64,000 nucleotides of DNA from Squalus acanthias (GCA_030390025.1 CM059431.1:124684001-124748000), one strand, 5' to 3'. Shown: positions 1,523 to 64,000, numbered from the stretch's first letter. The notes: generated by a model from the letters alone, not told the origin. Numbers and translations: made by a program.

Positions 1523-3346
1523 ATGGCGACCGCGGCAGGACATTGGCAGCGAGAGAGTAATGTTTTAGACCCTGGTGCGAATAGGCGAAATGTGATGGAT
1601 GAGAGGGTAGCCGACTATGTGTTTGGGAAGGTTAACTTAACCAAAAGGTGGATAAGTGACCTGCTGATGGATAAGCGTCCGCTAGACGCCGCTATCAAAT
1701 GGACAGGCAGTAAAGAGCATAAGAAGTCGGTAGAGAAAGCGGTCTGGCTGATGTGCTACAAGAAGCAAGTCCAACTTTCGGACCAGGTCACTGTGGCACA
1801 GGCAGCTCAGATCAGGGATTTGGAAGTTGAGATGGAGGAAAAGATCACGGGAGGACAGAAACTCATTGCATCATTGAATGCGTTACATCAGGAACGCCAG
1901 ATAGTAGCCAACCACCATGAGGCAAAAATTGATTACCTAGAGTGTCAGGTCACGGAAGCGAAATTAAACGAGGGTAAGATTAGAGAACGGTGTGCCTGCC
2001 TAGCTAACCAGATAAAAGCCCAAGAAGAAAGCTTGAAGTGAGTTAGGGCGGCATATAAGATGGCCCTCGAGGATAGGCATGATGGAGCCGACCACAGTGA
2101 TTGCCAGAAGGAGATAGGGAACCTAAGAGAGGCCCTGAATAATCCAAACGGCTTGGTGTGCCTCATCAGCCCGTCAGCAAACCAGCCACAGGTGGGTAGG
2201 GAATTCCCAAAATCCCTACCAGACAAAGCAGAGGAGGTATTTGCCACTGCGCCCTCCGCGCCACCCAGCTATTCGGCAACCTGGGTAAGGGAGGAAGTGG
2301 TGGAAATAGAAAAGGAGGTTCCCGAGGTAGGACAATCCCCGGAGGTAGAGTCGAAACCGGGACCGATGTGTCCGCTCCGAGGTCACAAGAGAGGTCCGGG
2401 TGGGGCAAATGGGGCAGAGGGGGATGTCCTGAACCAGCTTGTATTGCCTCACAGCTCACACCAGCTGAGAGCAATGATTAGTCATGTACGGAAGCAGTCC
2501 GAGTCAGACGACCCTTCCGTACACTTTAGGGAGGTAGAACAGACCGCAGCAATTAATGGCTGCGACGATGAGGAAAAGACCAAAATGTTGCTGTTCTCCT
2601 CAGATAGCTCGATCCTCCAGTGTCTCTCAGACGAGAGCAAGAAGGGAAATAAAACCTATGAGGAGTTAAGGGACGAGGTCCTAGAAGTGTTAGGGGCGGA
2701 TGACGAAGGTCCGTTCGTCAGATTGAGTCAAACCCTACAGATGGAGGGAGAACCCCCGAAGGTTTTCGCCGACAGACTGTGGCCAGTATACCAGCGTAGC
2801 TGCCCAGGTGTGCCACGCGCCACCGCCTGGGACGGTGCCGGTTTAACTCATTTGCTCAGGTGTTTAGTAGCCAACAGCTTGCCAGCCGTCAGGGAGCAGG
2901 CCAAAGCGTGGTTTGATCCCACAAACCCCGCCACAACAGAGGAGTCTGTCCTAAATCGACTCACCATAGGGTATCGTAACACTAGGAGCACGGGAGCGCG
3001 TCCCCTTAAGGGAAAGGTGCATGAGGCATGGCACGCAGCCCCGGCTCAAAAGGAGTGGCATCAGGAGGGAAACCGCGCCCCACAAGCCAGTGGTGCTTGT
3101 TACGGGTGCGGGATGACAGGTCACTGGCGTAAGAACTGTAGGAACCCCTGGAAGGACCCCAGGGATAAAAATCCCGCAGCCCGAACCCAAGTGCCTGTCT
3201 CTGAGAGAGGAGCTGGTGTGCCTATCCATCCCGATGCGATAGAATCAATGTTGGGAGCTATGCGGTTCCTTATGATTTTGCAAGGAAGGGTGGCAGTCGC
3301 AACCGGCCTCACAGATGCCACAACCCCGTCCACCAGTACCCAATGA
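1523..3346 (+). pseudogene. gag: gag of copy A, premature TGA at 2039-2041
   Basis: ORFs 1523-2041 and 2060-3346 are in one frame and colinear with intact Gag of copy B; PSAPPSY motif; CYGCGMTGHWRKNC zinc knuckle. Confidence 0.9.
1524..1541 (+). promoter_or_regulatory. Primer-binding site, tRNA-Arg(UCG), overlapping the gag ATG (1523)
   Basis: TGGCGACCGCGGCAGGAC is complementary to the vertebrate tRNA-Arg-UCG 3' end ...GUCCUGCCGCGGUCG-CCA (recalled sequence). Confidence 0.85.
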
Positions 3347-38587: not shown

Positions 38588-40177
38588 TGTAAGGGATACT
38601 CTCCTGACCCTGCGTGTCTCGTAACCTGTGAGGTTCACGCGGCTCTGTGCAGCCTGTATGTCAGTGCGGGTCTAGGCCTGGTCTCCAGCCAGTCTGGGAA
38701 CACTAGACACCCCTGTGAGTGGTTCGAATCACTCTCCCTTACGGTTCTAGACACTGGACTTAGATGCGAGAGCAGTAATGGAGATAAAACTCATGTAGAC
38801 TTGGTTTGAACGGTACGAAATGGAAAATCTTTATTGCATGATACTTAAAATTATGAAATACATGTCATATGCACAGATTAATGACAGTACAATCTTACAA
38901 ACAGTTATAATCACTCTTAGGGAAACGAGGAACGACCAGCACAACGTAAATAGGGCACACATTACAAATATCCTTACTTTAAACCCTCCCCTATCAATAA
39001 CTATCCTAAAACTAGCTTCGTAGGATCCCGAGACTCATGCTCACCACTCGTAATAACTCGGAGAAATCCCGAATAGCTGATCGGATGTTTTTCACCGCAG
39101 CACCCACGTGTTGGTCAGGAGATCTCCTGGTCCCACTTGTTTACTGCTTCTGCTGCTCGGTCAGTCGGCTGGACCGTCCGCTGTAGTGAAGACCTCTGTT
39201 GGTGGACTTTACAGTTCAGTCGAGGAGCACCGTTGTCAATATCATTGATACGATGTGTTTGCACAGTCCAGTTATCGTCGATGCAATATGTCTTGTTAAA
39301 GAAGAAAACTTCGTTGTCAAGAAGACTTGGCTGATCGACCTACAGGCGCGGTCGGGATTTACTGACCGTGGCGATGGATAAGGTCTTCTTCTCTTCTCCT
39401 CTCATCTCATCTCATCTCATCTCATCTCATCTCATCTCGGGCCTTTGGTTCCGCTGCCAGCTACCAACATAGGTCTTTGCAACAGTCTTTTACCCAGGAG
39501 CAGCCACGATGATAACAGCAGCAAGCGGCAAGAGTCACGAACACGAGGCAAGAGAGCGAATGGACGGTTTGGGGCCTGCAATTATAGTGCACAGTTCTTC
39601 CGTTTCCCGCCCAACTACAATGTCCATTCTTTTGTTTAAGGTTTGGCGCCCAAAAATGTCCTGTATGGGTGATCTCTGTCCTTAATGGGTTTCGGGGCTA
39701 CTCCTGAATGTTTGAGTACCTGTTAATATTTCTCCCATTGTTAAATCGGTCGGTGTTCCCCCTGGAGGGGTTTGGGGCTTCCAAGTGTCCTGTATAACTA
39801 CCTGCTAACGGCTCTCTCATCGTAGAGCCGTTGGGAGTTTACATATTAATGTCCTTTGGATGGGCCCTTGATGGCTTTCCTTTGTACCTGGGAGACCGAT
39901 CCCAGTATCGATGTTTATACTGCAAACCCATAATGTCCTGTGTATTGTCTTCACTGTGCTGAATCGTTATCGATCCTGCAAAAATGTTTATTGGAACGCC
40001 ATCTTGTCTGCCTGCCGAAAAGTCTCGAATGTTCTGTCACGCGGTGCGGCGGCCATTTTACAGGCTGCTTGTGTCCAATTTAAACCTGACAGCATTCCGC
40101 TGAAATAAAAGCTGTTTTGAACGAAACTTGTGTTTTCTCCTTATTAAAATGAAATCGCGATAATTGCGAATTCTACA
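38588..40177 (-). repeat. 3' LTR of copy B (1590 bp)
   Basis: Near-identical to 49514-51109; AATAAA on minus strand at 38830-38835; (CTCAT)7. Confidence 0.97.
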
Positions 40178-40189
40178 GTCCCTCCTGTT
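40178..40189 (-). promoter_or_regulatory. Polypurine tract of copy B
   Basis: Minus strand AACAGGAGGGAC directly precedes the TGTAGAA start of the 3' LTR. Confidence 0.75.
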
Positions 40190-40599
40190 GATGCGAATAA
40201 CTCCGCTTATCGTATCAAAAACTCAGTGGTGAGCAATCTTATCTCGATTTCACTCCGAATCCAGTAAATTAATCCCATAAAATTTTAACTTCACTAGGTC
40301 TCTGTGTCGTCCTTATTTCCCAAGAAAATCACATTTTATATCACCATAGGCATCATTTGCCCTTAAACTTACACCACTTGTTTTCCTTCCCGGCGTAACC
40401 AGGCCGATACCTCACGCATCACCTGTATATTTATCTTTTATTCAGGGAAGGAAAAACAAAACCCAAAAAACCAAACAATCAACACCATCACCAAAATAAA
40501 CAAATCCCGACTCTTAAACATGTCGAGTTTCCAACGTATTTACACTGAGTACAAACTTCCGCGGCGCACGTGGCGAGCGGGAGTGACGCCGTTTTCCCA

Positions 40600-42951
40600 T
40601 TACACTGCGCTCTCATCGTGCACGCGCACGTAACGTTCTCGCCACTCTCCCGTGTTCTCATGCTTGGTGAGGCGCTTGTCTCTTTTACAATGTATAAACA
40701 AAAGGTATACTACAATAAACACTTGACAGACGACTAAAATGTGGGAGGCTATTCTGACCCATGAGGGCACTTCAATATTCGTGAACAGATTCCACCACGG
40801 TGGAACCACTATGTCCAAAATGTCTGTACCTATCTCGACGGTTTTCTGTTCTAATGTATAGAAATGCTTTTGTGACACCGCGACGGCTTTTAGAAGTTTG
40901 GTTAAATGCTCGGGGAGAGGGGGAATGAGGTACCCAAAATGTGCGACAAATCGCTGCAAGTCGGTAAAATTCTCTTTTACTGTGAGATGAACAGTGGATG
41001 GTTCAGGGATTGGGATAATTCGCTGTTGTGCTACTTGAACTTCAGCCCTGGGTTTAAAACAGAAACTGCTGTCACTCACCGGACACCGGCTACGGTTTCC
41101 ATGCTGGTAGTGTTGCGCTGCAGTGGTAACACAATATGTTCCACCCCCGATGTATGCTACCTGCGGAGGCACATGATCTTGTGCCATTGCCTCCATGGTG
41201 CAATTCATGGACTTGGCGCCAGCCGTTCTGAACCCGCACTGTGGTGTTAAAAAGGCATTCAAGTGCTGGGGGCACAGTATTATGTGTGCTCCCCTGCCAC
41301 GACAACCAGAGAGATCTGTACCTGTCATCGTTTGCTCCCAGCGGATGACGTAAGGTGGAACCGCTGCATAACGAATGTGGGCTCCCCCCTGAATGACACC
41401 GATGTTCTCTACCCGATACACCGGGGCGGGCTTTGCTGTGTTGCCCAAAACCGGCATGCGTAATACTATTCCCATAATAGTATGGTTTGAACGTCCGCAG
41501 TCCACGGGGACTGGGTAAGCTTCTGAAGCTAGCCTGAGCTGGCACGGACTTAATGCATTCTGAAAAGGGTGGAGCGCCCGCAGGTGTTTGTTACTTATCC
41601 AGGACGGAACCAAACCTTGTTTTAAATCCTCCAAATTACTGCGGCCCTCGCCCAGTAACCACGCCCCGTAAAGCACGCACACCTCGTTCTGCGCAGCTTG
41701 ATCGGATGCATTCCGATCTTCCCTGATCAGGGCATTTACCGTACGCGCATGTTTCTCCAGCTCTGCTATAATCTCTTTTAAGTGTAGTGTCATGGCTTGG
41801 TCCTCGTGCAGACCCGACCCTACCACTTTATTCTCATCTGTAAGAATATCCTTTAACTGTGTTTTTAAACCATTAATCTGGGTCTGCAGCTCCACACTGT
41901 CTAGAGCGTTGACCACAGATGTCCCTGTGTTAAAAGCAGTGAACGCATCGTTCACCAAACCCCTTCTTTGCCTCCCAACTTGATCCAAAACTTCCTGCGG
42001 TGCGGTGTATAAACTTGTCTTATCAATTTCTGCAAAATCAAATTCGTAAAACTGCCTGAACATCTTGGTCAACGGGACCTGGTACAACTGTTCCGTCTTT
42101 TTGGGGCACCACTCTGGTAACCGTACCTCAGTGAGATTTAAAATCACCGAGGCCACCGCGTAATGCACTCCCTGAAATAGTATCTGGTCTGTGGGGACCA
42201 GTACCAAACCGTTCCCGGGTCCCTTACTAGTTTTAGGGCACCCTTCTTCCTCAGTTAGAACTACCGGAATCGTGGGCGGGGCTTTGCGTGGGCGCGTAAT
42301 GAGCTCAGTGGCATTTACTGGGATCGGGGAGAATGGGGCTCCGCACCCCCTGGTGCTCGCATCCCACCTCATCCCCTGTCCGTTATCCTGCCACTGGTTA
42401 ATAAAGAATATGGAGATGCCTTTGGGGCAAACGTACTTTGACCCCCACATACAAACATAAATCCCCTCATCTGGTTCCCACCATTTGTCCCAACAGACTT
42501 TCACTTGTCCATCTGTCCCCGTAATTGTCCGATGGGTATTATTACCCAGTCGCTCCCACTCAACCGAAGAGTTCCTCATAGTTTTGCTCAGCTTTCGCAG
42601 CCACCACCATCGGCTCAATGGGACATTCCCACTGCAGGTCAAACAAATCCGTTTGCCGACGGTGACGCTGATCCTGGGTGCGATGATCCGTACTTTGGGG
42701 CACATTAAAGAAGTCTCTTTGTAGGCGAACCCCGATGTGCTGGAATACTCCGTTGAGTTCGTTCCCAGCCATCCTGGCCACCTTCCCTTGTGGAAATAGG
42801 TGCTGGTCCCTTCTGCCTTCCGTCTCCCGGTCCCATCCACCGCGATGGGGGCCGTGTCCCCGGAACATCCAAACACCACGACATCCTTGGTGAGGCCCCG
42901 ATAGGCCAATCCACATCCGATTGCCACGAGCAAAACTAGAAGTCGTTCCAT
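40600..42951 (-). CDS. env: Envelope glycoprotein, 783 aa: signal peptide, Ig-like domain, furin site RQRR, fusion peptide and heptad repeat, Cys-rich region, TM
   Basis: Uninterrupted ORF between pol and 3' LTR; MERLLVLLVAIGCGLA leader; RQRR|GLVNDAFTAFNTG; TM IASHILVVCQVFIVVYLLFI. Confidence 0.92.
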   Translation of the reverse strand: MERLLVLLVAIGCGLAYRGLTKDVVVFGCSGDTAPIAVDGTGRRKAEGTSTYFHKGRWPGWLGTNSTEYSSTSGFAYKETSLMCPKVRIIAPRISVTVGKRICLTCSGNVPLSRWWWLRKLSKTMRNSSVEWERLGNNTHRTITGTDGQVKVCWDKWWEPDEGIYVCMWGSKYVCPKGISIFFINQWQDNGQGMRWDASTRGCGAPFSPIPVNATELITRPRKAPPTIPVVLTEEEGCPKTSKGPGNGLVLVPTDQILFQGVHYAVASVILNLTEVRLPEWCPKKTEQLYQVPLTKMFRQFYEFDFAEIDKTSLYTAPQEVLDQVGRQRRGLVNDAFTAFNTGTSVVNALDSVELQTQINGLKTQLKDILTDENKVVGSGLHEDQAMTLHLKEIIAELEKHARTVNALIREDRNASDQAAQNEVCVLYGAWLLGEGRSNLEDLKQGLVPSWISNKHLRALHPFQNALSPCQLRLASEAYPVPVDCGRSNHTIMGIVLRMPVLGNTAKPAPVYRVENIGVIQGGAHIRYAAVPPYVIRWEQTMTGTDLSGCRGRGAHIILCPQHLNAFLTPQCGFRTAGAKSMNCTMEAMAQDHVPPQVAYIGGGTYCVTTAAQHYQHGNRSRCPVSDSSFCFKPRAEVQVAQQRIIPIPEPSTVHLTVKENFTDLQRFVAHFGYLIPPLPEHLTKLLKAVAVSQKHFYTLEQKTVEIGTDILDIVVPPWWNLFTNIEVPSWVRIASHILVVCQVFIVVYLLFIHCKRDKRLTKHENTGEWRERYVRVHDESAV

Positions 42952-43234
42952 CCTTCCTTGGTTCCTGTGATCAGATAGAATGAGGTAGCCAGCCTCGCAA
43001 AAAGTCTCTGGCTTTTGTGAAGGGTGAGCGGGTCCCCTGACCTCGCCTCACGTAAACTTCAACGTTTGCTAAACAGACTTCCTCTAAACCTAGCCTTACA
43101 ACTCCCATCATTTTATCGTTATCTGTTAAAAACACTACAAACTTAACCTTATTAAAACTACTTAAAACTTTAAACTAAACTTAAAACCTTAAACTAATAA
43201 CTTTACAATGCCGCCCGTTCTCAGGGCGGCCCCT

Positions 43235-46200
43235 TTAAATCCTGAGAAGGCTGCTGCGAGCTCTTCCCGACGGTGGGAGGGCACTGACCCTTCCCTCTGA
43301 TCTGCCGCAGCCTGTTACTGCTTCGATGTGGCCTGTCTCTACCCGGGTTATCTTAACCTGAAACTTACGCCCTGGGGCAGCCTGTGGACCTGACCACGTC
43401 TTCCTGGGCTGGGGTGCTCTGCTTGACCTACGGGGAATTGCTATGGGCGGGGGCTCCGTGACGGACGGACCGGGTCCCGAGACCTTCAACGGAATGACCT
43501 GGGGTTCCATCACAGGCGCCAGCCCCGCCTCCGCTGACTCCGCCTCCCTAACCTCGGGGCTGGCAGTTCGGGGCCCCGCCCTGCTCGGCCCAGCAGGCGG
43601 CCCTTCACTCGCGAACTCTGCCTCCCCTGAGGACTGGACGTTCAAAGCGGGCGGCCACACCTCTGGGAACCACATAGCGGCTGGCCCGGCCTCCTCTAGC
43701 TCCTTCCTCCTGCTGTCGGGACCTGCAGCTTGTGTGTCCACCCCGTATGGATCTCTACCTAACGGCCCCAATCCTTCCAGACCGTTCCTCTGAAACCACC
43801 CGTCATCATCACTATGCTCATCTGCACTATCCTCGTCTGACCAGGGTACCCTGGGGTCCTCGTCATCTAACCCCCAACTCCAGAAAAACGCTGCATGATC
43901 GTCCGGGATGTCCCTTCCCCTGATGCAAGCTGCTACGCCTGCCTGTGTGCCTTGTGGTCCTACCTGGGGCTGTGTTTTCCCATTGGCGGGATTTACCCCT
44001 GTAGTTTTCCCTTGCGCACCCGGCTGGTACAGTTTACATTGGTTTATGTGGAACCACTTAGTGCGCCGAGGTACTTTTACGGCGTAAACCATGGGACTTG
44101 CCTTGTCTACAATGTTGTAGGGTCCCATATACAGTGGTTCCAGACTCCCTACTCTGGCGTAGTTTCTGACCATGACCTGGTCTCCTACTTCCCACTCCCG
44201 CGTTTTGCGGGGTTCCAGCAACAAGCGATTGCCCTGGTGCTGCCTTCCCATGTTCCCAGCCGCCTGCTCATAAACTTGCTTCAGGCGCTCCAAGAGAGTT
44301 TGGGCGAACTTGTCCCTGCTGATCTCTTGAAGCTGACCCTCAGTGAGCACCGGGGCTAGCACATGGGTGGGGGTTCGCATGAGCCTGCCGGTCATTACCT
44401 CGTGCGGGGAGTACCCCGTACTTTTTGACTGACTGGCCCGGACCCCCATGAGGACTAAAGGCAGAACTTCCGCCCATTTTTGGGGCGAGTTCCTAGTCTC
44501 TTTCCTCAATTTCTCCTTCAGGGTCCGGTTCATACGTTCAACAATCCCGGATGACTGGGGATTGTGTGCTACGTGCCACTTCCCTTCAATGCCCAAAAGC
44601 ATGAGGGTGTTCTGCATCACCTGGCCGGTGAAATGACTCCCTTGGTCTGACTCCACGAAACGGGGGAGTCCCCACCGCGAGAACACTTCCCGGACCAAGA
44701 TTTTTGCTGTACCCAGTGCCGTAGCTGTTCGACAAGGGAAGGCTTCCACCCACTTGGAAAACACATCCACCAGGACGAGGCAGTACTTATAACCTCCCTG
44801 GGTGGTGGGCAGGGGTCCTATATAGTCGATCTGTATCGACTGCCATGGTCCCTCTACCCTTCTTACGTGTCCCATGGGCACCTTCCTTTTCTGGGGGTCT
44901 GGGTTGTTTGCAGCGCACACAAGACAGTTTGCACAGAACTCGCGGACTTGTTCCCTGAGCCCTGGCCACCATCCCGCTTGCTCTACCCGTTGCCAGGTAA
45001 CCTCGGGCCCGGGGTGCCCTGCCCCTGGTCCCTCGTGAGCCAACTGGAGGAATTCCCTCCTGTGCTGCTGCGGCACAACCCACTGCTCCTCGCGGAACAG
45101 CATGCCTTCCTTAACTGAGAGGGTTGCCGTACTGTACGGACCTTCTACCTGCCTCCCCTCAGCAATCGTTTTTAGGACTGCTTTTAGGGCGGGATCCTGG
45201 GCTTGGACGGTCTTAAGGTCTAGGGGCAATGCTACCCTGGTGTTCCCGGTATTCCCGTCCCCACCTCGGACCGCTGCTATGGGTCCGGTTCTATAGGGGT
45301 TCCAGAAAGTACCGTCGCGGGCACCCTCCCTGGCTAGCGCATCCGCCTGCCGGTTGCCCTCCCCACGGGGCTCTGTGGAGGAGTGAGCTTTCACCTTATG
45401 GATGAAAATCTCCCCTTCCTCCCCTACTGCTGCTGCTAAGATCTTCTCCAGCAAGGGCTTTACCGTTAAAGGTCGCCCGTCCGCGGAGGTGTATCCACGG
45501 CGGGACCAAATGGCCAGGTATTCCGTACACGAATTGCAGGTGAACATACTGTCCGAGCAAATCGTGTATGGGGTTGGGAAAATGTCTGGGTGGGTTACCA
45601 CGTACACCACGGCAGACAGCTCAGCCTGCTGCGCGCTCATGGTGCTAGGGAGCTTGATCGCCAGGGCAAGGTCTGCCGCAGGGTCATAAACTCCACACCC
45701 TGTGAGTCGCTCGCCAGCAGATACTGTGCTAGACCCATCAACATAAATCTCGCGCCCAGTGGGATGTATCCCGGCCCGTAAACCTATGTTGACTTCCCAC
45801 ACCCCCTCCACCGAACACCGGTGGGCTGTACCGGGGTATACCAAATTGGCCGCAAGCCTGGGCTCGCAAAGACCTTTTACTCTGATGTCCAACTGGGAGA
45901 GAAGAAGGGTCCAACGCGCAATGCGTGCGCTGCTTACGGTCCCGTCTTTAATCCTCCCATCCAGAAGCATCTTAGTTGGTGTGTGATGTGTGAGGAGAGT
46001 GATGGGAGAGAGCCCTGTGAAGATCGCTGATCTTTTCACAGCCCAATGCGTGGCTAAAAGGTGCCTTTCGCAATTGGAAAAACTTCTCTCCACATCCGTT
46101 AATACCCTGGATGAATAGACAACCGGCCTCAGCTTGCCGTGACGCTCTTGGAGCAGCACGGCGCTTAAGCTGTCTCCGCTGGCAGCTACCTCCAGGAAAA

Positions 46201-47697
46201 ACTCCTTCCCCCCATCTATGGCCCCTAAGGCTGGCGCGGTCTGCAGATCCCTTTTAACTTCTCGAAGGCTGCTTGGCAGCCCTCGTCCCAAAGCCACTCC
46301 ACTCCCTTATGGAGGAGTCGGAGGAGCGGTGCCGCTGTGGCCGCATAATCCTCGATAAAATCCCTGCAGTAACCGGTCAGTCCCAAGAAGGACCTCACAC
46401 CCCTTACGTTGTTGGGAATCGGTAATTCTTGCACCGACTCCCTCCTTGCTTTGTCTATGGCTCTTTCCCCAGCGCGTAGGGTCAGTCCCAGGAATTTTAC
46501 TTCCTGCTGACCGATACGTGCTTTCTTTGGGTTTACTTTAAAACCCTTTCTCGCTAACAGCTCCAATAACTCGTCCAGCAGTGGTCCGTGCTCCTCCCTT
46601 GAGTCCGTAAATAGGAGCAAATCATCCACATACTGTACTATCTGATTGGGCTGACTAAACTCCTTTAAACTTCCTGCCATACACTGGTGAAAAATACTGG
46701 GGCTATTGTGGAAACCTTGTGGCAAACAGTTCCACGTGTACTGTTGCCCTTTAAACGTAAAGGCAAACTTGTACTGGTCCTCTCGCCGCAGCGGGATGGA
46801 CCAAAAACCGTTCGAGATATCCAGCACCGTGAACGTGGTCGCGGACGCTGGGATACTCCCTATTAGGTCAGCAACTGCTGCTACTGTGGGCGCGCAGGCG
46901 GGGATGTTACTGTTAAGGACTCTGTAGTCCACCGTGGCTCTCCACGAATTATCCGGCTTCCTAACCGGCCATAATGGGGAGTTCACGTGTGTGGCTATCG
47001 GCCTCAACACGCCCTGCTGCACCAAGGAAGACATTGCTGCCTCCATATCGGGTTCTGCTTCTTTGGGGAAGTTATACTGTTTTTGGGGTCGGGTCATGGG
47101 GTCCCCATCTACGCTGACCTCAAACCCGACCACCCTCCCACAATCGTGCTTGTGGGTTGCAAACGCGTGCATATTATCTGTCACGTACGTTTGCATGTCC
47201 GTTGGGACATCTGCGACCATAAGCCTGAGGTCGTAGCCTCCGGATGGCTGTACGGTACACAGGACCCCTGTTTCTTCCTCCCCTTGAATTACCATTACCT
47301 CGCCTTTTTCACCTTTAGCCCCCCAGAGACAGTGATTTCTGAGGTCCACGAGGATCCCGTGTCCCGCTAGCAGATCGGACCCGAGAATACCTCTTCCACC
47401 CCCCTTTTGCCATGCCATCAGTATACACTTCCACTTAATGCGAAGTGTCCCTAAACGAATGGATAGCGGGAGGGAAAACGTGCCAGCCTGTTCTTTCCCT
47501 GTGAACCCTGCTAGCGTGAATGGGACCTTGGTAGATAGCGGCGAGTCAAAAGGGTCATCTGTATGGATTATGGTGCAAGAAGCTCCCGTGTCCAACAGAT
47601 AACTGCCCTTTTGTTTCTCTACCTCCATCTCCACCACAGGTCGCCTCCACGCATCATAGCTGAGCGGACACAGGTAGACGGGCTGTGCTGGTTCTAG
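43235..47697 (-). CDS. pol: Pol (PR-RT-tether-RNase H-IN plus C-terminal extension), probably made by readthrough; single 1-bp frameshift at 46252-46255
   Basis: ORFs 46225-47637 and 43235-46297 join if one A is restored in GTTAAAAGGG (copy A has 5 A); catalytic motifs intact. Confidence 0.92.
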
Positions 47698-49509
47698 TCA
47701 TGGGGCACTATTAGACGGTCCTGCGGCACCTACGGGGCCGGTTGCGACCGCCACCTGTCCACGCGCATTCAAAACCATCTTGCGCATGACTCCTAACACT
47801 GCCTCGAGGTCTTCGGGAGAGGTGGGTACCTTTGCTTCCTTAGCCGGGACAGGCGCCTGGGCTCGGACCGCGGGATTTTTATCCTTGGAATCCTTCCAAG
47901 GGTTCCTGCAGTGCTTGCGCCAGTGCCCTGTCTTCCCACACCCGTAACAGGCATTACTTGCCTGTGGGGCGCGATTACCCTCCTGATGCCACTCTCTTTG
48001 AGCCGGGGCTGCGGGTCGTACCTCATGTACTCTTCCCTTAAAGGGACGTGTTGCCATACCCCTTATGTTACGGTAACCTAACGTGAGTCGATTCAAGACC
48101 GACTCTTCCGTAAGGTTGAGGTCATTGGGATCGAACCAGGCTTTTGCCTGCTCTCTAACGGCTGGTAAACTGTTGGCTATTATGCACCTAAGCCAATGAA
48201 CTAAAGCGGCGCCTTCCACATCTTCGCGTTCGGGCGCACCTAGACAGCTGCGCTCATATACTGGCCACAGCCTGTCGGCAAAAACCTTCGGGGGTTCTCC
48301 CTCCATCTGCACTGTCTGTCCCACTCTAGCAAACGGACCTCCGTCGTTCGCTCCCACTACTTCTAGGACCTCATTTTTCAATTCCTCGTAACTTTTATTA
48401 CCCCTCTTGCTATCGCCTGAGAGGCACTGAAGGACCGAGCTATCTAATGAGAACAGCAGCATTTTTGCTGTCTCCCCATCATCGCAGCCGTTGATGGCTG
48501 CGGCTTGCTCAACTTCCCTAAAATGTACGGAAGGGTCGTCTATCTCGGTCAGCTTCCTTACGTGGTTTATCATAGCCCTCAGCTGATGTGAACTGTGAGG
48601 CAACACCAGCTGTCCGAGGAGATCCCCCGGTTCTTCCCCACCGTTTCTGCTTGGGCCCCTTTTAATCCCCGTTACTGGATACAACGATCCCTTTTCTACC
48701 TCTTTTTCAACGGGCTCTTTCGCTTCTTCCGTTGCTTCCTCCCTAACCCAGGTTTCTGAATAGCTGGGTGGCGCGGAGGGCGCAGTGGCTACTACCTCTT
48801 CTGCTTTACTTGGTGGGGAATTTCTAAATCTCTCATTTACTAGCGGCTGGCGTGCCGACGGATTAATAAGGCACACCATGCCGTTCGCATTATTCACGGC
48901 CTTTTTGAGGCTCTCTATCTCTTTTTCGCAGGCGCTATGGTCGGCTCCCTGAAACTTATCCTCAAGGGCCAACTTATACGCCGACCTAACCCCCATTAAG
49001 CTCTCTTCTTGAGTTCTTATCTGGGCAGCTTGACGGTTACATCTTTCCTTCATCCTATTCTCGTTTAATTTTGCTTCAGTGATCTGGCACTCGAGATACT
49101 CTACCCTTGTTTTAAGGTAACTGGAGACTTCCTGGCTTTCCTGGCGTAACTCATTTAAACTCTTAATGAGCACCTCCCCTCCAGAAACCTTCTCCTCCAT
49201 TTCCTCCTCTAAATGCTTGATTCGAGCGGTTAGCGCTGTATTGGTCTGGTTTGAAATCTGGACCTGCCTTTTGTAGCACATAAGCCAGACTGCTTTCTCA
49301 ACTGCCTTTTTATGCTCCTTACTATCCGTCCACCTTTCAGCTGCCTCTAATGGGCTCTTATCCGCTAACAGTTCGCTTATCCACTTTTTCGTTAGATTAA
49401 CCTTTCCAAATACGTAATCCGCTATCTTTTCCTGCATCACATTTTGTACAGTCATTCCAAAATCTAACACACTACCCTCTCGCTGCCAATGTCCTGCCGC
49501 GGTCGCCAT
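47698..49509 (-). CDS. gag: Gag, 603 aa: coiled-coil N-terminus, PSAPPSY late domain, capsid-like region, one CCHC knuckle
   Basis: Open ORF from the ATG overlapping the PBS to TGA; CYGCGKTGHWRKHC. Confidence 0.93.
   Translation of the reverse strand: MATAAGHWQREGSVLDFGMTVQNVMQEKIADYVFGKVNLTKKWISELLADKSPLEAAERWTDSKEHKKAVEKAVWLMCYKRQVQISNQTNTALTARIKHLEEEMEEKVSGGEVLIKSLNELRQESQEVSSYLKTRVEYLECQITEAKLNENRMKERCNRQAAQIRTQEESLMGVRSAYKLALEDKFQGADHSACEKEIESLKKAVNNANGMVCLINPSARQPLVNERFRNSPPSKAEEVVATAPSAPPSYSETWVREEATEEAKEPVEKEVEKGSLYPVTGIKRGPSRNGGEEPGDLLGQLVLPHSSHQLRAMINHVRKLTEIDDPSVHFREVEQAAAINGCDDGETAKMLLFSLDSSVLQCLSGDSKRGNKSYEELKNEVLEVVGANDGGPFARVGQTVQMEGEPPKVFADRLWPVYERSCLGAPEREDVEGAALVHWLRCIIANSLPAVREQAKAWFDPNDLNLTEESVLNRLTLGYRNIRGMATRPFKGRVHEVRPAAPAQREWHQEGNRAPQASNACYGCGKTGHWRKHCRNPWKDSKDKNPAVRAQAPVPAKEAKVPTSPEDLEAVLGVMRKMVLNARGQVAVATGPVGAAGPSNSAP
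49491..49508 (-). promoter_or_regulatory. PBS tRNA-Arg(UCG) of copy B
   Basis: Minus strand TGGCGACCGCGGCAGGAC, 5 nt after the LTR end. Confidence 0.85.
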
Positions 49510-49513
49510 TTTC

Positions 49514-51109
49514 TGTAAGGGATACTCTCCTGACCCTGCGTGTCTCGTAACCTGTGAGGTTCACGCGGCTCTGTGCAGCCTGTATGTCAGTGCGGGTCTA
49601 GGCCTGGTCTCCAGCCAGTCTGGGAACACTAGACACCCCTGTGAGTGGTTCGAATCACTCTCCCTTACGGTTCTAGACACTGGACTTAGATGCGAGAGCA
49701 GTAATGGAGATAAAACTCATGTAGACTTGGTTTGAACGGTACGAAATGGAAAATCTTTATTGCATGATACTTAAAATTATGAAATACATGTCATATGCAC
49801 AGATTAATGACAGTACAATCTTACAAACAGTTATAATCACTCTTAGGGAAACGAGGAACGACCAGCACAACGTAAATAGGGCACACATTACAAATATCCT
49901 TAACTTTAAACCCTCCCCTATCAATAACTATCCTAAAACTAGCTTCGTAGGATCCCGAGACTCATGCTCACCACTCGTAATAACTCGGAGAAATCCCGAA
50001 TAGCTGATCGGATGTTTTTCACCGCAGCACCCACGTGTTGGTCAGGAGATCTCCTGGTCCCACTTGTTTACTGCTTCTGCTGCTCGGTCAGTCGGCTGGA
50101 CCGTCCGCTGTAGTGAAGACCTCTGTTGGTGGACTTTACAGTTCAGTCGAGGAGCACCGTTGTCAATATCATTGATACGATGTGTTTGCACAGTCCAGTT
50201 ATCGTCGATGCAATATGTCTTGTTAAAGAAGAAAACTTCGTTGTCAAGAAGACTTGGCTGATCGACCTACAGGCGCGGTCGGGATTTACTGACCGTGGCG
50301 ATGGATAAGGTCTTCTTCTCTTCTCCTCTCATCTCATCTCATCTCATCTCATCTCATCTCATCTCATCTCGGGCCTTTGGTTCCGCTGCCAGCTACCAAC
50401 ATAGGTCTTTGCAACAGTCTTTTACCCAGGAGCAGCCACGATGATAACAGCAGCAAGCGGCAAGAGTCACGAACACGAGGCAAGAGAGCGAATGGACGGT
50501 TTGGGGCCTGCAATTATAGTGCACAGTTCTTCCGTTTCCCGCCCAACTACAATGTCCATTCTTTTGTTTAAGGTTTGGCGCCCAAAAATGTCCTGTATGG
50601 GTGATCTCTGTCCTTAATGGGTTTCGGGGCTACTCCTGAATGTTTGAGTACCTGTTAATATTTCTCCCATTGTTAAATCGGTCGGTGTTCCCCCTGGAGG
50701 GGTTTGGGGCTTCCAAGTGTCCTGTATAACTACCTGCTAACGGCTCTCTCATCGTAGAGCCGTTGGGAGTTTACATATTAATGTCCTTTGGATGGGCCCT
50801 TGATGGCTTTCCTTTGTACCTGGGAGACCGATCCCAGTATCGATGTTTATACTGCAAACCCATAATGTCCTGTGTATTGTCTTCACTGTGCTGAATCGTT
50901 ATCGATCCTGCAAAAATGTTTATTGGAACGCCATCTTGTCTGCCTGCCGAAAAGTCTCGAATGTTCTGTCACGCGGTGCGGCGGCCATTTTACAGGCTGC
51001 TTGTGTCCAATTTAAACCTGACAGCATTCCGCTGAAATAAAAGCTGTTTTGAACGAAACTTGTGTTTTCTCCTTATTAAAATGAAATCGCGATAATTGCG
51101 AATTCTACA
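49514..51109 (-). repeat. 5' LTR of copy B (1596 bp)
   Basis: Differs from the 3' LTR by one extra A near 49902 and one extra CTCAT unit. Confidence 0.97.
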
Positions 51110-51630
51110 GGGAGCAAAGCAGTGAAGATATCTTAGTAATAAAGTTTTTATGGTACTTGGGTGGGCGGTAGAGAACGAGAATTTTAAATGACAGGTGAGA
51201 GGGGTGGAATAAGGTGAGATGCTCAAGGAGGAGAAAGTGCTGGAGGAGTAGGGGGACAGACCAAGTTGTGATTTGGTGATGAGAGCCACACCGCCACCAC
51301 GGCATTCTGGACGGATGGGGCGGAGATTGGCAAGATTATCCCCCAGCAGGCATGCTGGGCGGGAAGGTCAGCGAGAAAGTAGGATGGGACAGTTGGGGTT
51401 GCTGCTCATGAGGAGGCAGTGACGAGTGCCTCGATGGGCCCTTCAGAGGATGCCAAGAGAGGCATGGAGGGAAGCTGTAGGCTTATCTAAGAGGGAGTCA
51501 AGCCTGGGACGGCGGCAGGAGAGTAGGAAGGTCGAAGAGTAATAAAGGAAAAGGAAAAGGGGGGAGAAAAATGTAGAAATAGAAGTGAACGGCTCAGGTC
51601 CGGAGCAGCAGCCAAAATGCGCACGCAAAT
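51110..51630 (-). mobile_element. L2 LINE upstream part (endonuclease N-terminus)
   Basis: FKILVLYRPPKYHKNFITKISSLLCSL joins SLCTERLLILCDFNLH across the TSD. Confidence 0.82.
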
Positions 51631-57165: not shown

Positions 57166-60100
57166 TGTAAAGTTTCGCAATTATCGCGATTCAAAATAAC
57201 ATAAGAGAAGCAGATTCATTTGATCAGTTTTATTAAACGAAATGCTGTCCTGATAATAAAGGACACCGAAGCCTGTAAAATGGCCGCCGCGCATCGTGGC
57301 AGAAGCTTCCAGAAACACAGTGGGCAGACAAGATGGCGTCGAATATACATTCAGTATAAGATTGGATCATACTCGGTAAACATTGATAAAGACAGGATGC
57401 AACCCGTTTGCATCTTAAACAATAGCTAAGATATAAGTGCTGGAATCGTTTTCCTATGCACAGTAAGGATCATTGTACTGAGCAATCGAAGGCCCATCCA
57501 GACACATCAATATACAAATACCCCCCTGGCTCTACAATGAGAGAGACATTGACGGGTGATTAAGTCGGTATTCGGGGGGCCCCAAAAACCAGTCGAGGAG
57601 ACGATTCATACACATCCTGGCTGGGTCAACAATGGGGAAAACATTAACGGATAGTTGGCCAGTTTCAGGTGCTACCGAAACCCGTTAAAGAAGATAATCG
57701 CCCCATGCTGGGAGTTTTGAGTGCCAAATATTACACAGAGGACAAACATTAAGATTTGAGCAGGAGATAAGGAGGACACATCACTATAACTATAGAGAAC
57801 AAATGTCCATCGCTCTCTTATTCCCCGGGCTGACTCTTATTCGCTTGCCTCTTCATGAACTCGCTTGACTTGTGGGCTCTTGATTTTCTCTCTGGACTTT
57901 GTTGACTCTTGACTCTTAGCCGTACTGGTCGGTTATTCGAGTGTTGGGTGGAGCTCAATCGGTACGAGCCGCCCCGACAAGGGCAAGTAACAGGGTGCAC
58001 CATCCCAAGTGTCGGTAAACGGTGTCTGGACCCGGAGGCCCGAGGAGACGAGACGAGAAGAAGACGAGAAGAAGACGAGAAGAAGTTTCACGTGCCGCCA
58101 CGGTCAGTGAACCCCGACCGCGCCCGAAAAATATAAATACAGGACTCTTCTTTGAGTTCTACCGACTACAACCTGTGTCGAACACAGGAAGACTCTTCTT
58201 TGAATTGTATCCGAGTTCCGTCGAGTTCTTCATGACAACAGGGAGTCTGGCCTGCTTTTCGCAGCAGCGAAAGTAAACAAGTCGGGTGCAGAGACCCTTC
58301 CAAACACGTGACAGTCAGGCGCTGCAGCGAAACGAGCTGAGTGCCTCACTTTAAAATCTCTGAAGTAACACGAGTGGTGAGCATGCTTTCCGATCCTACA
58401 AATCCAGACGTAGTGTAGGTATTGTTAAGGGAGGGTGGTTTTAAATAAGGTTAAGAGATAATGTGTTCCCCTTTTTACGATGTGCCGTGTGTTCTCCATT
58501 TCCATAGACCAAGCTTTATGAATGTATGTATACTTGTACTATCTTTGATTTGCGCCTATGACATGTATTTCATGATTTTAGACGCCATGCAATAAAGATT
58601 TCCATTTTGTTCTATTCAACCGGGTCTATTTGAGTTTTTCTCTGCATTACTGCTCCCTGCACCTAAGTCCAGTGTTAGAACCGTAAGGGCGAGTGGGTCG
58701 AACCACTCACAGGTGCTTATTGCAAAAAGGCTGGCCGGAGACCAGAGCAAACATTAGTATAGGCAACAAAGGCCTAACCTCGCACCAGCACCGTCTGAGA
58801 CACGCCCCCCTTACAGAAAATGGCGACCGCGGCAGGACTCTGGCAGCAGGAGAGTAATGTTTTAGACCCTGGTTTGAATAGGTGAAATGTGATGGATGAG
58901 AAGGTAGCCGACTATGTGTTTGGGAAGGTTAACTTGACCAAAAAGTGGATAAGTGACCTACTGATGGATAAGCGTCTGCTAGACGCCGCCATCAAATGGA
59001 CAGGCAGTAAAGATCATAAGAAGTCGGTAGAGAAAGCGGTCTGGCTGATGTGCTACAAGAAGCAAGTCCAACTTTCGGACCAGGTCATTGCAGCACAGGC
59101 AGCTCAGATCAGGGGATTGGAAACTGAGATGGAGGAAAAGGTCACGGGAGGACAGAAACTCATTGCATCATTGAATGCGTTACATCAGGAACGCCAAATA
59201 GTAGCCAACCACCACGAGGCTAAAATTGATTACCTAGAATGTCAGGTCACGGAAGCAAAATTAAACGAGGGAAGGATTAGAGAACGGTGTATCCGCCTAG
59301 CTAACCAGATAAAATCCCAGGAAGAAAGCTTGAGGGGAGTTAGGGCGGCATACAAGATGGCCCTCGAGGATAGGCATGAGGGAGCCGACCACAGTGTTTG
59401 CCAGAGGGAGATAGAGAACCTAAGGGGGTCTATGAATAAGGCAAACGGCTTGGTGTGTCTCATCAGCCCGTCAGCGAGCCAGCCACAGGTGGGTAGGGAA
59501 TTCCCAAAATCCCTACCGGAAAAAGCAGAAGAGGTATCTACCACTATGCCCTCCGCGCCACCCAGCTATTCGGCAACCTGGGTAAGGGAGGAAGTGGTGG
59601 AAATAGAGAAGAAGGTTCCCGAGGTAGGACAATCCCCGGAGGTAGCGTCGAGACCGGGACCGATGTGTTCGGTCCGAGGTCATAAGGGAGGCCCAAATGA
59701 GGCAGATGGGGCAGACAGGGATGTCCAGAACCAACTTGTATTGCCCCACAGCTCACACCAGCTGAGAGCAATGATTAGCCATGTACGGAAGCTGTCCGAG
59801 TCAGAAGACCCTTCCGTACATTTTAGGGAAGTAGAACAGACCGCAGCGATTAATGGCTGCGACGATGAGGAAAAGACCAAAATGTTGCTGTTCTCTTTAG
59901 ATAGCTCGATCCTTCAGCGTCTCTCCGACGAGAGCAAGAAGGGGAATAAAACTTATGAGGAGTTACGGGACGAGGTCCTAGAAGTGTTAGGGACGGATGA
60001 CGAAGGTCCGTTCGTCAGATTGAGTCAAACCATACAGATGGAGGGAGAACCCCCGAAGGTTTTCGCCGACAGACTGTGGCCAGTATACCAGCATAGCTGC

Positions 60101-61346
60101 CCAGGTGCGCCAGAGCGCAGCTATCTGCACGGCGCCGGGAAAGCTCATTGGCTCAGGTGCATGGTAGCCAACAGCTTGCCAGCCGTCAGGGAGCAGGCCA
60201 GAGCGTAGTTTGATCCCACTAACCCCGACACAACGGAGGAATCTGTCCTGAATCGACTCACCATAGGGTATCGGAACACTAGGAGCACGGGAGCGCGTCC
60301 CCTTAAGGGAAAGGTGCATGAGGCAAAGCCCGCAGCTCCGGCTCAGAAAGAGTGGCATCAGGAGGGAAATCGCGCCCCACAAACCAGTGGTGTTTGTTAC
60401 GGTTGCGGGAAGACAGGTCACTGGCATAAAAACTGCAGGAATCCCAGGAAGGATTCCAGGGAAATAGCTCCCGCAGTCCGAACCCAAGCGCCTGTCTCTG
60501 AGAAAGGAGCTGGTGTGCCTATCCATCCCGATGCGATAGAATCAATGTTGGGAGCCATGCGGTCCCTTATGATTTCGCACGGGAAAGTGGCAGTTGTTAC
60601 CGGCCCCACAGATGCCACAAACCCATCCACCGGTACCCAATGACTAAAGCCCGCGCAGCCCGTTTACCTGTGTCCGCTCAGCTATGATGCGTGGAAAAGA
60701 CCCCTGGTAGAGATGGAAGTAGAGAAGCAGAAGGGTAGTTACTTGTTGAACACGGGAGCTTCATGCACCGTGATCCATACAGATAGCCCCTTTGACTCAC
60801 CACTGTCTACCAAGGTCCCATTCACATGAGCGGGGTTCACGGGAAAAGAGCAGGCTGACGCGTTCTCCATTCCGCTCTCCATTCATTTAGGAGCACTCCA
60901 CACCACATGGAAGTGCATACTGATGAAATGGCAAGAGTGGGGTGGCAGAGGTATCCTCGGATCGGATCTCCTAGCGGAACACGGGATCTTCGTGGACCTT
61001 AGGAATCACTGTCTCTGGGGAGCCAAGGGTGGGAAAGGCAAGGTAGTTGTAATCCCACGGAAGGAAGGAAAAGGGGCCCTGTGTACCATGAAGCCATCCG
61101 GAGGTTACGACCTCGGGCTTATGGTCGCGGATGTCCCAACGGACATGCAAACGTACGTGTCAGATAATATGCACGCGTTTGCAACCCACAAGCACGATTG
61201 TGGAAGGGTTACCGGGTTTGAGGTCAGCGTAGACGGGGACCCCATGACCCGGCCCCAAAAGCAGTATAACTTCCCCAAAGAAGCAGAACCCGACATGGAG
61301 ACAGCAATGTCCTCATTGGTGCAGCAGGGCGTGTTGAGACCGATAG
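57166..61346 (+). mobile_element. Copy C of the retrovirus-like family: LTR 57166-58815, PBS 58821-58838, gag and 5' pol; interrupted by copy D
   Basis: LTR TGTAAAG...TTACA; gag with stops at 58883 and 60206; protease D-to-N (LLNTG) and stop at ~60827. Confidence 0.92.
58820..60643 (+). pseudogene. gag: gag of copy C (two premature stops)
   Basis: Colinear with Gag of copies A and B; ends TGA-CTA. Confidence 0.9.
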
Positions 61347-64000
61347 TGTAAAGTTTCGCAATTATCGCGATTCGAAATAACGAGATAGAAGCAGATACGT
61401 TTGATCAGTTTATTTAAACAAAATGCTTTCATGATTAAACAGGACACAGAAGCCTGTAAAATGGCCGCCGTGCATCGTGGCAGAAGTTTCCAGAAGTACA
61501 GTGGGCAGACAAGATGGCGTTCGAATAAACATTTTCGATAAGCACTGATAAAGACAGGATGCAACCTGTTTGCATTTGTGACAATAGCAAAAGATATGAG
61601 TGCTGGAATAATTTTCCATGCACAAGTAAGGACCATTGTACTGGGCAATCGAAGGCCCATCCAGACACATCAACACGCAAATACCCCCACGGCTCTACAA
61701 TGAGAGAGCCATTCTCGGGTGATTAAACAAGTATTCGGGGGCCCCCAAAACCCAGCCAGGGAGGCTCCGAGCCGGTTCAACAATGGGGAAAACATTAACG
61801 TGTAGTTGGCCAGTCTCAGGTGCTACCGAAACCCGTTAAAGACAAGAATCACCCCATGCTGTGAGTTTTGAGCGCCAATATTTCACAAAGGACAAACATT
61901 AAGATTTGGGCGGGAGATAGGGGAACACAGCACTATAACTATAGACAACAAATGTCCATCGGTCTCTTATTTTCTCTTATCTCTGCGGACTCTTGACTGG
62001 GGCTGAACTCTGCAGGACGAGCAGCATTCTGTGTTTCTCTGGACTCTGTTGACTCTGGACTTTTAGCCGCACTGGACGGTTATTCGAATTGGAACGAGTC
62101 GCCCCGACGAAGGCCAGTGACCGGGTGCACCATCCCGAGAGTCGGTAAACGGTGTTTGGACCTGAAGGCCCAACAAGGCGAGACGAAATGACAAGAGAAG
62201 AAGAAGAATCCACGTGCCGCCGCGGTCAGTAAACCCCGACCGTGCCCGAAAATATACGACCCATTTCTTGAACTCTACAGGTTACTGCACGAACTGGTCG
62301 AAGACTCTTCTTTGAATTCTGCCGGTAACTGGTGTCGGTCCAGGAAGACTTTTCTTTGAGTTCTACATCCGGGCCCGAGCACTGTCGAGTTCTTCATGAC
62401 AACGGGGAGCCCAGCCTGCTTGCAGCAGCAGCGAAAGTAAACAAGTGGGGTACAGAGACCCCTCAAAACACGTGACAGTCAGGCGCTGCAGCGAAACGAG
62501 CCAAGCGCCTCACCTTAAAATTCTCCGAAGTATCACGAGTGGTGAGCATGTTTCCCGATCCTACAAATCTAGATGTAGTGTAGGTATTGATAGGGGAGGG
62601 TGGTTTTATTAAGGATAAAGTATAATGTGTTCCCCTTTTTACGATGTGCCGTGCGTTCTTCATTACCATAGACCAAGCTTTATGAATGTATCTATACTTG
62701 TACTGTCGTTAATTTGTGCCTATGACATGTACTTAATGATTTTGGACGCTATGCAATAAAGATTTCCATTTCGTACTATTCAACCGGGTCTATTTGAGTT
62801 TCTCTCTGCATTATTGCTCTCGCACCTAAGTCCAGTGTTAGAACCGTAAGGGCGAGTGAGTCGAACCACTCACAGGTGCTTATTGCAACAAGGCTGGCCG
62901 GAGACCAGAGCAAGCAATAGTATTAGGCAACGAAGGCCTAACCCCGCACCAGCACCGTCTGCGATACAAGCACGACACACAACCCCTTACAGAAAATGGT
63001 GACCACGAAGGGACTCTGGCAGCGAGAGAGTAATATTTCAGACCCTGGTGTGAATAGGCGAAATGTGATGGATGAGAGGGTAGCCGACTATGTGTTTGGG
63101 AAGGTTCACTTAACCAAAAGGTGGATAAGTGACCTACTGATGGATAAGCGTCCGCTAGACATAGCCATCAAATGGACAGGCAGTAAAGAGCATAAGAAGT
63201 CGGTGGAGAAAGCGGTCTGGCTGATGTGCTACAAGAAGCAGGTCCAACTTTCGGACCAGGTCATTGTAGCACAGGCAGCTCAGATCAGGGACTGTGAAGT
63301 TGAGATGGAGGAAAAGGTCACGGGAGGACAGAAACTCATTGCATCCTTGAATGCGTTACATCAGGAACGCCAGATAGTAGCCAACCACCATGAGGCTAAA
63401 ATTGATTACCTAGAGTGCCAGGTCACGGAAGCAAAGTTAAACGAGGGTAGGATTAGAGAACGGTGTGCCCGCCTAGCTAACCAAATAAAAGCCTAGGAAG
63501 AAAGCTTGAAGGGAGTTAGGGCGGCATACAAAATGGCCCTCGAGGATAGGCATGAGGGAGCCGACCACAGTGTTTGTCAGAAGGAGATAGGGAGCCTAAG
63601 AGAGGCCCTGAATAAGGCAAACGGCTTGGTGTGCCTCATCAGCCCGTCAGCAAACCAGCCACAGGTGGGTAGGGAATTCCCAAAATCCCTACCAGACAAA
63701 GCAGAGGAGGTATTTGCCACTGCGCCCTCCGCGCCACCCAGCTATACGGCAACCTGGGTAAGGGAGGAAGTGGTGGAAATAGAGAAGTAGGTTCCCGAGG
63801 TAGGACAATCCCCAGAGGTAGAGTCGAGCCCGGGACCGATGTGTCCGCTCCGAGGTCACAAGAGAGGCCCGAACGCAGCCAATGGGGATGACGGGGATGT
63901 CCTGAACCAGCTGGTATTGCCTCACAGCTCACACCAGCTGAGAGCAATGATTAGCCATGTACGGAAGCTGTCCGAGTCAGACGACCCTTCTGTACACTTC
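61347..64000 (+). mobile_element. Copy D, nested in the RT region of copy C; LTR 61347-62991, variant PBS 62997-63014, gag runs off the window
   Basis: Pol of C breaks at GVLRPI into TGTAAAGTTTCGC; gag with TAG stops at 63494 and 63788. Confidence 0.92.

Follow-up and report, generated by a model that had tools for sequence, protein, structure and literature searches.

Can the host transfer RNA (tRNA) that primes an endogenous retrovirus (ERV) rewrite part of the element's sequence, and might it in doing so alter a viral protein? The question is raised by 64,000 nt of the genome of Squalus acanthias (GCA_030390025.1 CM059431.1:124684001-124748000; hereafter the window), which contain four copies (A, B, C and D) of one large family of retrovirus-like ERVs with the layout long terminal repeat (LTR), primer-binding site (PBS), gag, TGA, pro-pol, env. 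The PBS of copy D differs from that of the other three; we refer to the two forms as D-type and A-type. A first-pass annotation had read the difference as a switch between two tRNA-Arg(UCG) isodecoders that rewrites the N-terminus of Gag. Using the window and the 3.7 Gb genome from which it comes, we find that the family provides a natural, well-documented example of a PBS that has switched repeatedly between two tRNA-Arg(TCG) isodecoders. The switches probably reflect tRNA-templated rewriting of the PBS, and an effect on the Gag N-terminus is possible.

Results

Two classes of PBS correspond to two host tRNA-Arg(TCG) isodecoders

The three occurrences of the A-type 18-mer, TGGCGACCGCGGCAGGAC, in the window are in copies A, B and C, compared with a chance expectation of 0.03, and the D-type 18-mer, TGGTGACCACGAAGGGAC, occurs once, in copy D. 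The span of interest, 62996-63016, comprises the A of an ATG, the PBS itself (18 nt) and two bases 3' of it. When the four copies are aligned, copy D departs from the others at PBS positions 4, 9, 12, 13 and 14 (5 of 18 nt). Over 1699 nt, copies A and D share 93.9% identity, so that about 1.1 differences would be expected per 18 nt and five is an excess (Poisson P ~0.005); the exact match positions and the alignment thus bear out the first-pass annotation, which had described the differences as denser in the PBS than in its surroundings. The N-termini that it gave, MVTTKG in copy D and MATAAG in copies A, B and C, are likewise those encoded in the translated DNA.

We searched the genome for a pattern consisting of the T-loop and acceptor strand of either type, and typed the matches with ARAGORN. 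The D-type pattern has four genomic matches, one of which (L012, on contig C24) is a tRNA-Arg(tcg) gene, the remaining three being PBSs of other LTR elements. For the A-type pattern there are 531 matches, including a standard tRNA-Arg(tcg) gene (L016) and array copies that ARAGORN also types as tRNA-Arg(tcg) (L017, L019 and L021). In gene number, therefore, a single D-type isodecoder gene stands against hundreds of A-type genes. Most A-type matches lie in tandem arrays with a unit of ~1623 bp, at ~38.99-41.88 Mb of G000:C26 (L017-L024), alongside tRNA-Ser(gct); in the tRNA-Arg array copies that we examined, 17 nt are inserted directly 3' of position 37, where tRNA introns usually lie.

The reverse complements of the tRNA 3' ends plus CCA are exactly TGGCGACCACGAAGGGAC for L012 and TGGCGACCGCGGCAGGAC for L016, such that L016 matches the A-type PBS at 18 of 18 positions and L012 matches the D-type PBS at 18 of 18. 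Copy D itself matches L012 at 17 of 18, its single miss being T for C at PBS position 4, a transition at a CpG. Both isodecoder ends that the first-pass annotation had given for vertebrate tRNAs are thus present in the host, a tRNA complementary to the D-type PBS exists, and the fit of copy D to it save at one CpG-type position is as had been claimed. The two tRNAs differ at 9 of 73 nt, four of them within the PBS-complementary part; their ends have 14 of 18 nt in common, including the eight 3'-terminal ones, and their anticodon loops are the same.

To place the four window copies within the family, we took a census of copies with the family's leader flank (AATGG-N17-TGGCAGCGAGA, matched exactly; older and decayed copies are missing from it). 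Genome-wide, 3117 copies have this flank. Positions 12-14 of the PBS read GCA (A-type) in 2587 copies and AAG (D-type) in 362; among the 2965 copies with any of the eight R-M-R combinations at these positions, just 16 (0.5%) are in one of the six intermediate states. PBS states hence form two classes and no continuum, as the discrete-class reading had predicted. In the first 100 listed copies of each class, 84 are exact tRNA matches (hand count), and the variants are single CpG transitions in 16 of 16 A-type and 12 of 16 D-type cases; no D-type copy in that list has G at position 9 (hand count). The first 100 copies of the unrestricted family list comprise 82 A-type copies, 15 D-type copies and three A-type copies with one change elsewhere. 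We considered whether PBSs like that of L066, with A at position 9 together with GCA, are chimeras left by heteroduplex repair, and rejected this in favour of CpG decay, since they are as frequent as other CpG variants (4 of 100 A-type copies).

With up to one mismatch, the D-type 18-mer occurs 446 times genome-wide, several unrelated LTR families included. Six such LTR elements, unrelated to the family beyond the PBS, use the D-type tRNA-Arg PBS (L001, L003, L005, L009, L010 and L011); L010 likewise has a PBS-overlapping ATG (MATTKGFDKR), the frame of which closes after 10 codons.

The exchange is confined to the PBS. An A-type copy (L069) and two D-type copies (L027 and copy D of the window) have identical immediate flanks, including the TC that follows the PBS, in keeping with the claim that the change is a block replacement with unchanged flanks. 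The flanks of the other D-type lineage diverge from -5 upstream and +12 downstream, which limits any imported tract to ~35 nt at most. The bases after the PBS vary within the family (AC, AT, GC, TC and CC, with TC in copies C and D), and two of the five bases of the LTR-PBS spacer are the most changeable sites nearby, with 8 and 9 parsimony steps. Position 19, immediately after the PBS, shows a modest excess of steps (5, compared with 0-7 nearby). An N-C pattern there would fit misreading of A58 and might be left by read-through at m1A58; we take this as no more than suggestive and draw nothing from it.

PBS switching recurs on trees of the family

We built a tree of 66 rows from the first 30 loci per class (all on contig C1), two D-type copies and the four window copies, after dropping two duplicates; the PBS was removed, and the input consisted of 600 nt of LTR and 900 nt of gag. 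The PBS label requires four changes on this tree, at least three of them forced by well-supported branches, compared with a mean of ~22 for shuffled labels. With four long-branch rows dropped, an LTR-only tree requires five changes (at least four forced) and a gag-only tree six (at least three forced), and the overall order of the two trees is the same. An approximately unbiased (AU) test on 62 rows rejected a single split of the D-type rows (delta lnL 553.6, p 1e-27).

The 66-row tree has the shape of a ladder that runs from young A-type copies, including copy B (tip branches ~0.004), through older A-type copies to a D-type ladder, beyond which a long branch leads to a clade of copies A, C and D that carries both PBS types. 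The flank typical of this clade is found in 131 copies, 52 of them D-type, and within this set both classes occur with each of TC, GC and AC/AT after the PBS. A second tree, of the copy D clade, has 46 rows, including 31 extra loci picked according to PBS class and to the two bases that follow the PBS; A-type copies with AC are under-sampled in it. It requires 12 label changes (bootstrap 11-13), at least five of them forced, and the label is weakly clustered (12 changes, compared with 15.6 when shuffled). Three A-type rows (L097, L098 and L066) are at the base of the clade, and another (L096) is sister to a row of the D-type ladder. The changes of label thus map to separate points of the family tree, with at least three forced in one tree and at least five in the other and a single split rejected by the AU test, although recombination may have caused part of this pattern.

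Two suggestions of the first-pass annotation are not supported. It had proposed that a mispriming event was fixed in copy D, but the D-type class to which copy D belongs has at least 362 members, and the nearest relatives of copy D carry both types; it is a typical D-type copy and a single fossil from a family in which both states have long coexisted. It had also taken the A-type as ancestral and the D-type as derived, whereas in the 66-row tree both main lineages have D-type copies at their base; the added sampling of the 46-row tree instead places A-type rows at the base of the copy D clade. A related ERV family (L013 and L014) aligns with ours at 70-76% identity, but the alignment is limited to the PBS and ~80 nt of gag and is too short for an outgroup, so polarity rests on tip-branch lengths. 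Copy D may carry the older state.

An ATG overlapping the PBS leads into the gag frame

Among the 2687 copies with an intact 5' half of the PBS, 2683 have an A before its TGG, creating an ATG in the context AAAATGG. The frame of this ATG leads into gag; of 62 sampled copies, 59 have it open and three (L007, L054 and copy C of the window) have an in-frame stop; in copy B, the PBS lies in an open reading frame (ORF) that is continuous with Gag. The four copies without the A (CTGG or TTGG; G000:C6:85973209, C1252:564866, C3234:250751 and C3234:261747) are all D-type, and two of them are 11 kb apart on one contig.

The DNA encodes MATAAG in the A-type and MATTKG in the D-type, such that a switch would change codons 4 and 5 if the PBS-overlapping ATG is used; in copy D, the CpG decay at position 4 would add a change of Ala2 to Val, giving MVTTKG. 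Gag may be translated from this ATG, and an effect of the switch on the Gag N-terminus is correspondingly possible. When positions 48700-51110 were compared with four sequencing runs, the only RNA raw-read run contributed 0 reads, and the contig runs are uninformative on RNA, strand and ends.

The related family (L013 at G000:C11:84128224 and L014 at C14:75398194) also has an A-type PBS, a PBS-overlapping ATG and a homologous Gag, MATAAGLEG... Its frame is open, with spacing to a conserved Gag motif identical to that in our family; residues 7-25 are unrelated, and there is no Met at codon 25.

Structure of the elements in the window

The coordinates of the four copies are collected in Table 1. 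Copy B is a provirus whose LTRs, 1.6 kb long with TG...CA ends, are 99.6% identical to each other, and it is flanked by a 4-bp repeat, TCCC, as a target duplication. Its gag terminates in TGA, and pro-pol continues in the same frame as two ORFs, PR-RT and RNase H-IN. Pfam matches in pol are RVT_1, RNase_H PF00075, Integrase_H2C2 and rve, and the domain order of the family is PR-RT-RNase H-IN, followed by the env ORF. Compared with solved structures, the RT matches foamy virus PR-RT (1.6e-53) and XMRV/MLV RT (~1e-48 to 1e-49) best, and in this set its sequence appears about equally near to foamy virus and gammaretrovirus RTs. Judged by the LTR pair, target duplication, RT, retroviral RNase H and integrase, the family is classed as a retrovirus-like ERV of Retroviridae type.

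Neither Gag nor Env of copy B has a Pfam or PDB sequence match below threshold, the best sub-threshold matches of Env being DUF6360 (E 0.044) and Ig_3 (E 0.43). The Env translation has a signal-like start and a C-terminal hydrophobic stretch, as well as an RQRR site near residue 330, which is followed by a hydrophobic, heptad-like stretch.

In copies B and D the LTR ends in ...CCCTTACA, followed by the spacer GAAAA and the PBS. Copy D is nested in the RT-coding region of copy C pol, at 61346/61347 (...VQQGVLRPI, then LTR), and it is younger than copy C because it is inserted inside it.

Table 1. Features of the four ERV copies, in window coordinates.
Feature	Position	Strand	Remarks
Copy A gag frame	starts 1523	+	MATAAG; stop after codon 172
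Copy A PBS, A-type	1524..1541	+	5' LTR cut by window start
Copy B provirus	38588..51109	-	5' LTR 51109-49514; 3' LTR 40177-38588
Copy B env ORF	42951-40600	-	783 aa
Copy B gag ORF	49509-47698	-	603 aa; opens at the ATG overlapping the PBS
Copy B PBS, A-type	49491..49508	-	
Copy C 5' LTR	57166-58815	+	internal part of copy C cut at 61346 by copy D
Copy C PBS, A-type	58821..58838	+	18/18 to tRNA-Arg(TCG) isodecoder L016
Copy D 5' LTR	61347..62991	+	TG...CA; then 5-nt spacer GAAAA at 62992-62996
ATG overlapping copy D PBS	62996..62998	+	A plus TG of TGG; context AAAATGG; gag-frame
Copy D gag reading frame	62996..64000	+	begins MVTTKG; codons 167 and 263 are in-frame stops; continues beyond the window
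Copy D PBS, D-type	62997..63014	+	17/18 to tRNA-Arg(TCG) isodecoder L012
TC dinucleotide 3' of copy D PBS	63015..63016	+	stretches tRNA T-loop complementarity to 20 nt

Discussion

How the switches may arise

What we observe are two PBS states, the two host tRNAs, a near-absence of intermediates and recurrence on trees. The best reading of these observations, and in our judgement a probable one, is that the PBS has been rewritten on a tRNA template, by cross-priming between near-identical isodecoders, with possible spread by recombination. According to the portions of PMC7472051 available to us, the primer tRNA serves as template for the plus strand of a retroviral PBS and the parental RNA for its minus strand, and priming by another tRNA yields progeny with a new PBS. 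We infer that cross-priming may have caused the switches in a similar manner. Either isodecoder would anneal to either PBS; cross-priming should be easy, given the 14 of 18 common nucleotides and the shared anticodon loop. Plus-strand strong-stop DNA would then copy the last 18 nt of the primer, and a cross-primed cycle would leave a heteroduplex of parental and tRNA-derived strands at the PBS, the resolution of which would yield progeny with the other PBS and untouched flanks. The family would have switched state in this way several times, in both of the lineages sampled, and copy D would be a D-type insertion, nested in an older A-type copy, that later underwent one CpG decay in its PBS.

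Several points weigh against this reading. Recombination between co-packaged A-type and D-type RNAs could scatter the labels over a tree with no new mispriming, and our data cannot separate such recombination from repeated cross-priming inside a clade. The inner branches of the copy D clade are short and 18 of its 43 forks are unresolved, such that the count of 12 changes is inflated and only five are forced. The tree samples are also non-random, with loci from C1 only in one, 31 hand-chosen loci in the other and a strict flank match throughout. Lastly, the use or packaging of either tRNA as a primer is a prediction from sequence.

Retroviral recombination is frequent, and this favours a history in which the D-type PBS was acquired a single time, long ago, by mispriming or by capture from another ERV, and then moved by recombination or gene conversion only, its recurrence on the trees being reassortment. 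Such a history predicts the near-absence of linkage between the label and the copy D clade tree (12 changes, compared with 15.6 when shuffled), and potential donors exist in the unrelated LTR families with a D-type PBS (L001, L003, L005 and L009-L011). Nonetheless, BLAST finds nothing in common between those families and ours beyond the PBS, the D-type PBS is on at least two flank backgrounds, so that each transfer would require a double crossover within ~35 nt, and the LTR-side and gag-side trees agree on the switch points; we therefore think a single acquisition unlikely. We hold it to be vanishingly improbable that the D-type arose from a single PBS through ordinary point mutations and CpG decay, with no change of primer. 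Two of the five differences of copy D, at positions 4 and 9, are indeed CpG-type transitions, and A-type copies with A at position 9 do exist (4 of the first 100 listed), but positions 12-14 shift jointly from GCA to AAG, a transversion included, with 16 intermediates in 2965 copies; the D-type PBS fits a second host tRNA at 18 of 18 positions; and the identical triple change recurs at least three times on the tree. A triple-plus-one change that is recurrent, lacks intermediates and is exact to a second host tRNA is not one that point mutation could make, and we regard a point-mutation origin as refuted by the tRNA match, the scarce intermediates and the recurrence.

The PBS switch could be real and yet have no consequence for the protein. 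Gag may start at Met25, with the frame of the PBS-overlapping ATG serving as untranslated leader or as a leaky upstream start, and we give this a little less than an even chance. All 62 copies listed have Met25, and its context in copy D (GTGATGG) is good. Codons 7-30 show no third-position excess, with parsimony-informative sites at 8, 8 and 11 of 24 first, second and third positions, compared with 17, 18 and 55 of 70 for codons 31-100, and this too supports a start at Met25. Counting likewise towards a start at Met25, U5 holds at least one upstream ATG, which opens a 15-codon frame, and R possibly holds more. Set against a start at Met25 only are the presence of the PBS-overlapping ATG in 2683 of 2687 copies and its strong context, the open frame in 59 of 62 sampled copies, and the related L014 family, which has no Met25 and yet has kept the PBS-overlapping ATG, the open frame and the spacing. 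A bolder version of tRNA-templated rewriting is that the family is bi-primed, with either isodecoder able to initiate reverse transcription from either PBS state, its PBS being a two-state record of the last primer that flips at an appreciable rate. As the PBS would provide codons 2-6 of Gag and the final two bases of its start codon, the tRNA would then write the start of Gag at each cycle, toggling between MATAAG and MATTKG. We put this forward tentatively, as somewhat doubtful.

Comparison with known systems

The family resembles class I-like (gamma/epsilon-like) and spuma-like ERVs in its TG...CA LTRs, 4-bp target duplication, gag-stop-pro-pol in one frame, and env ORF; unlike them, it lacks a long leader between the PBS and the gag frame. 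The Env of lokiretroviruses resembles the paramyxovirus fusion glycoprotein F0, PF00523 (PMC7947760); we considered an assignment of the family to this group and rejected it, as the 783-aa Env has no match to PF00523 even at E up to 10.

In the open-access literature, we found no 18-nt retrovirus-type PBS that overlaps a gag start codon and toggles between two isodecoders, and the available portions of PMC8278194 and PMC3383448 held nothing relevant on a PBS overlapping the gag start. If the PBS-overlapping ATG does initiate Gag, the family would be a retrovirus-like element with coding sequence templated by a host tRNA, a situation that we did not find described in that literature. A parallel is Ty1 (Pseudoviridae), whose PBS is inside the GAG ORF (PMC4974528, in the part available to us), just as the PBS of the Squalus family is within sequence that can be read as Gag. 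Ty1, however, uses tRNAiMet and a 10-nt bipartite PBS that is inside the ORF and away from the start codon, whereas the Squalus family is retrovirus-like, with RNase H PF00075, env and an 18-nt PBS. Moreover, in the account given in the accessible part of PMC7472051, Ty1 and Ty3 inherit the PBS strictly, with no re-copying from the tRNA.

The Squalus family is an unusually clean natural record of switching, with thousands of copies, two states, few intermediates, both primer genes in the same genome and several switches mapped on a single tree. It lets one ask how frequent cross-priming is, what role the copy number of the primer genes plays, and whether or not a switch precedes a burst of copies. 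PBS switching is a known route of primer change, and it has been discussed as a means to evade silencing that KRAB zinc-finger proteins or 3' tRNA fragments direct at the PBS. The suggestion of the first-pass annotation that the switch might serve such evasion here is speculative.

Switching within one ERV family has already been described: the PBS of ETnIIbeta/ETnI can switch from tRNA-Lys3 to Lys1,2, and that of MLV can adapt from tRNA-Pro to tRNA-Gln (PMC7472051, as far as the accessible text goes). As in those cases, the Squalus family is one family with two PBS types that correspond to two related host tRNAs, and its mode of PBS inheritance appears to be the same. It differs from them, as they are described there, in that its primers are isodecoders with one anticodon (TCG); in that it is very large, with 2587 copies of one type and 362 of the other; in that it switches several times, possibly in both directions; and in that its PBS overlaps an ATG in the gag frame.

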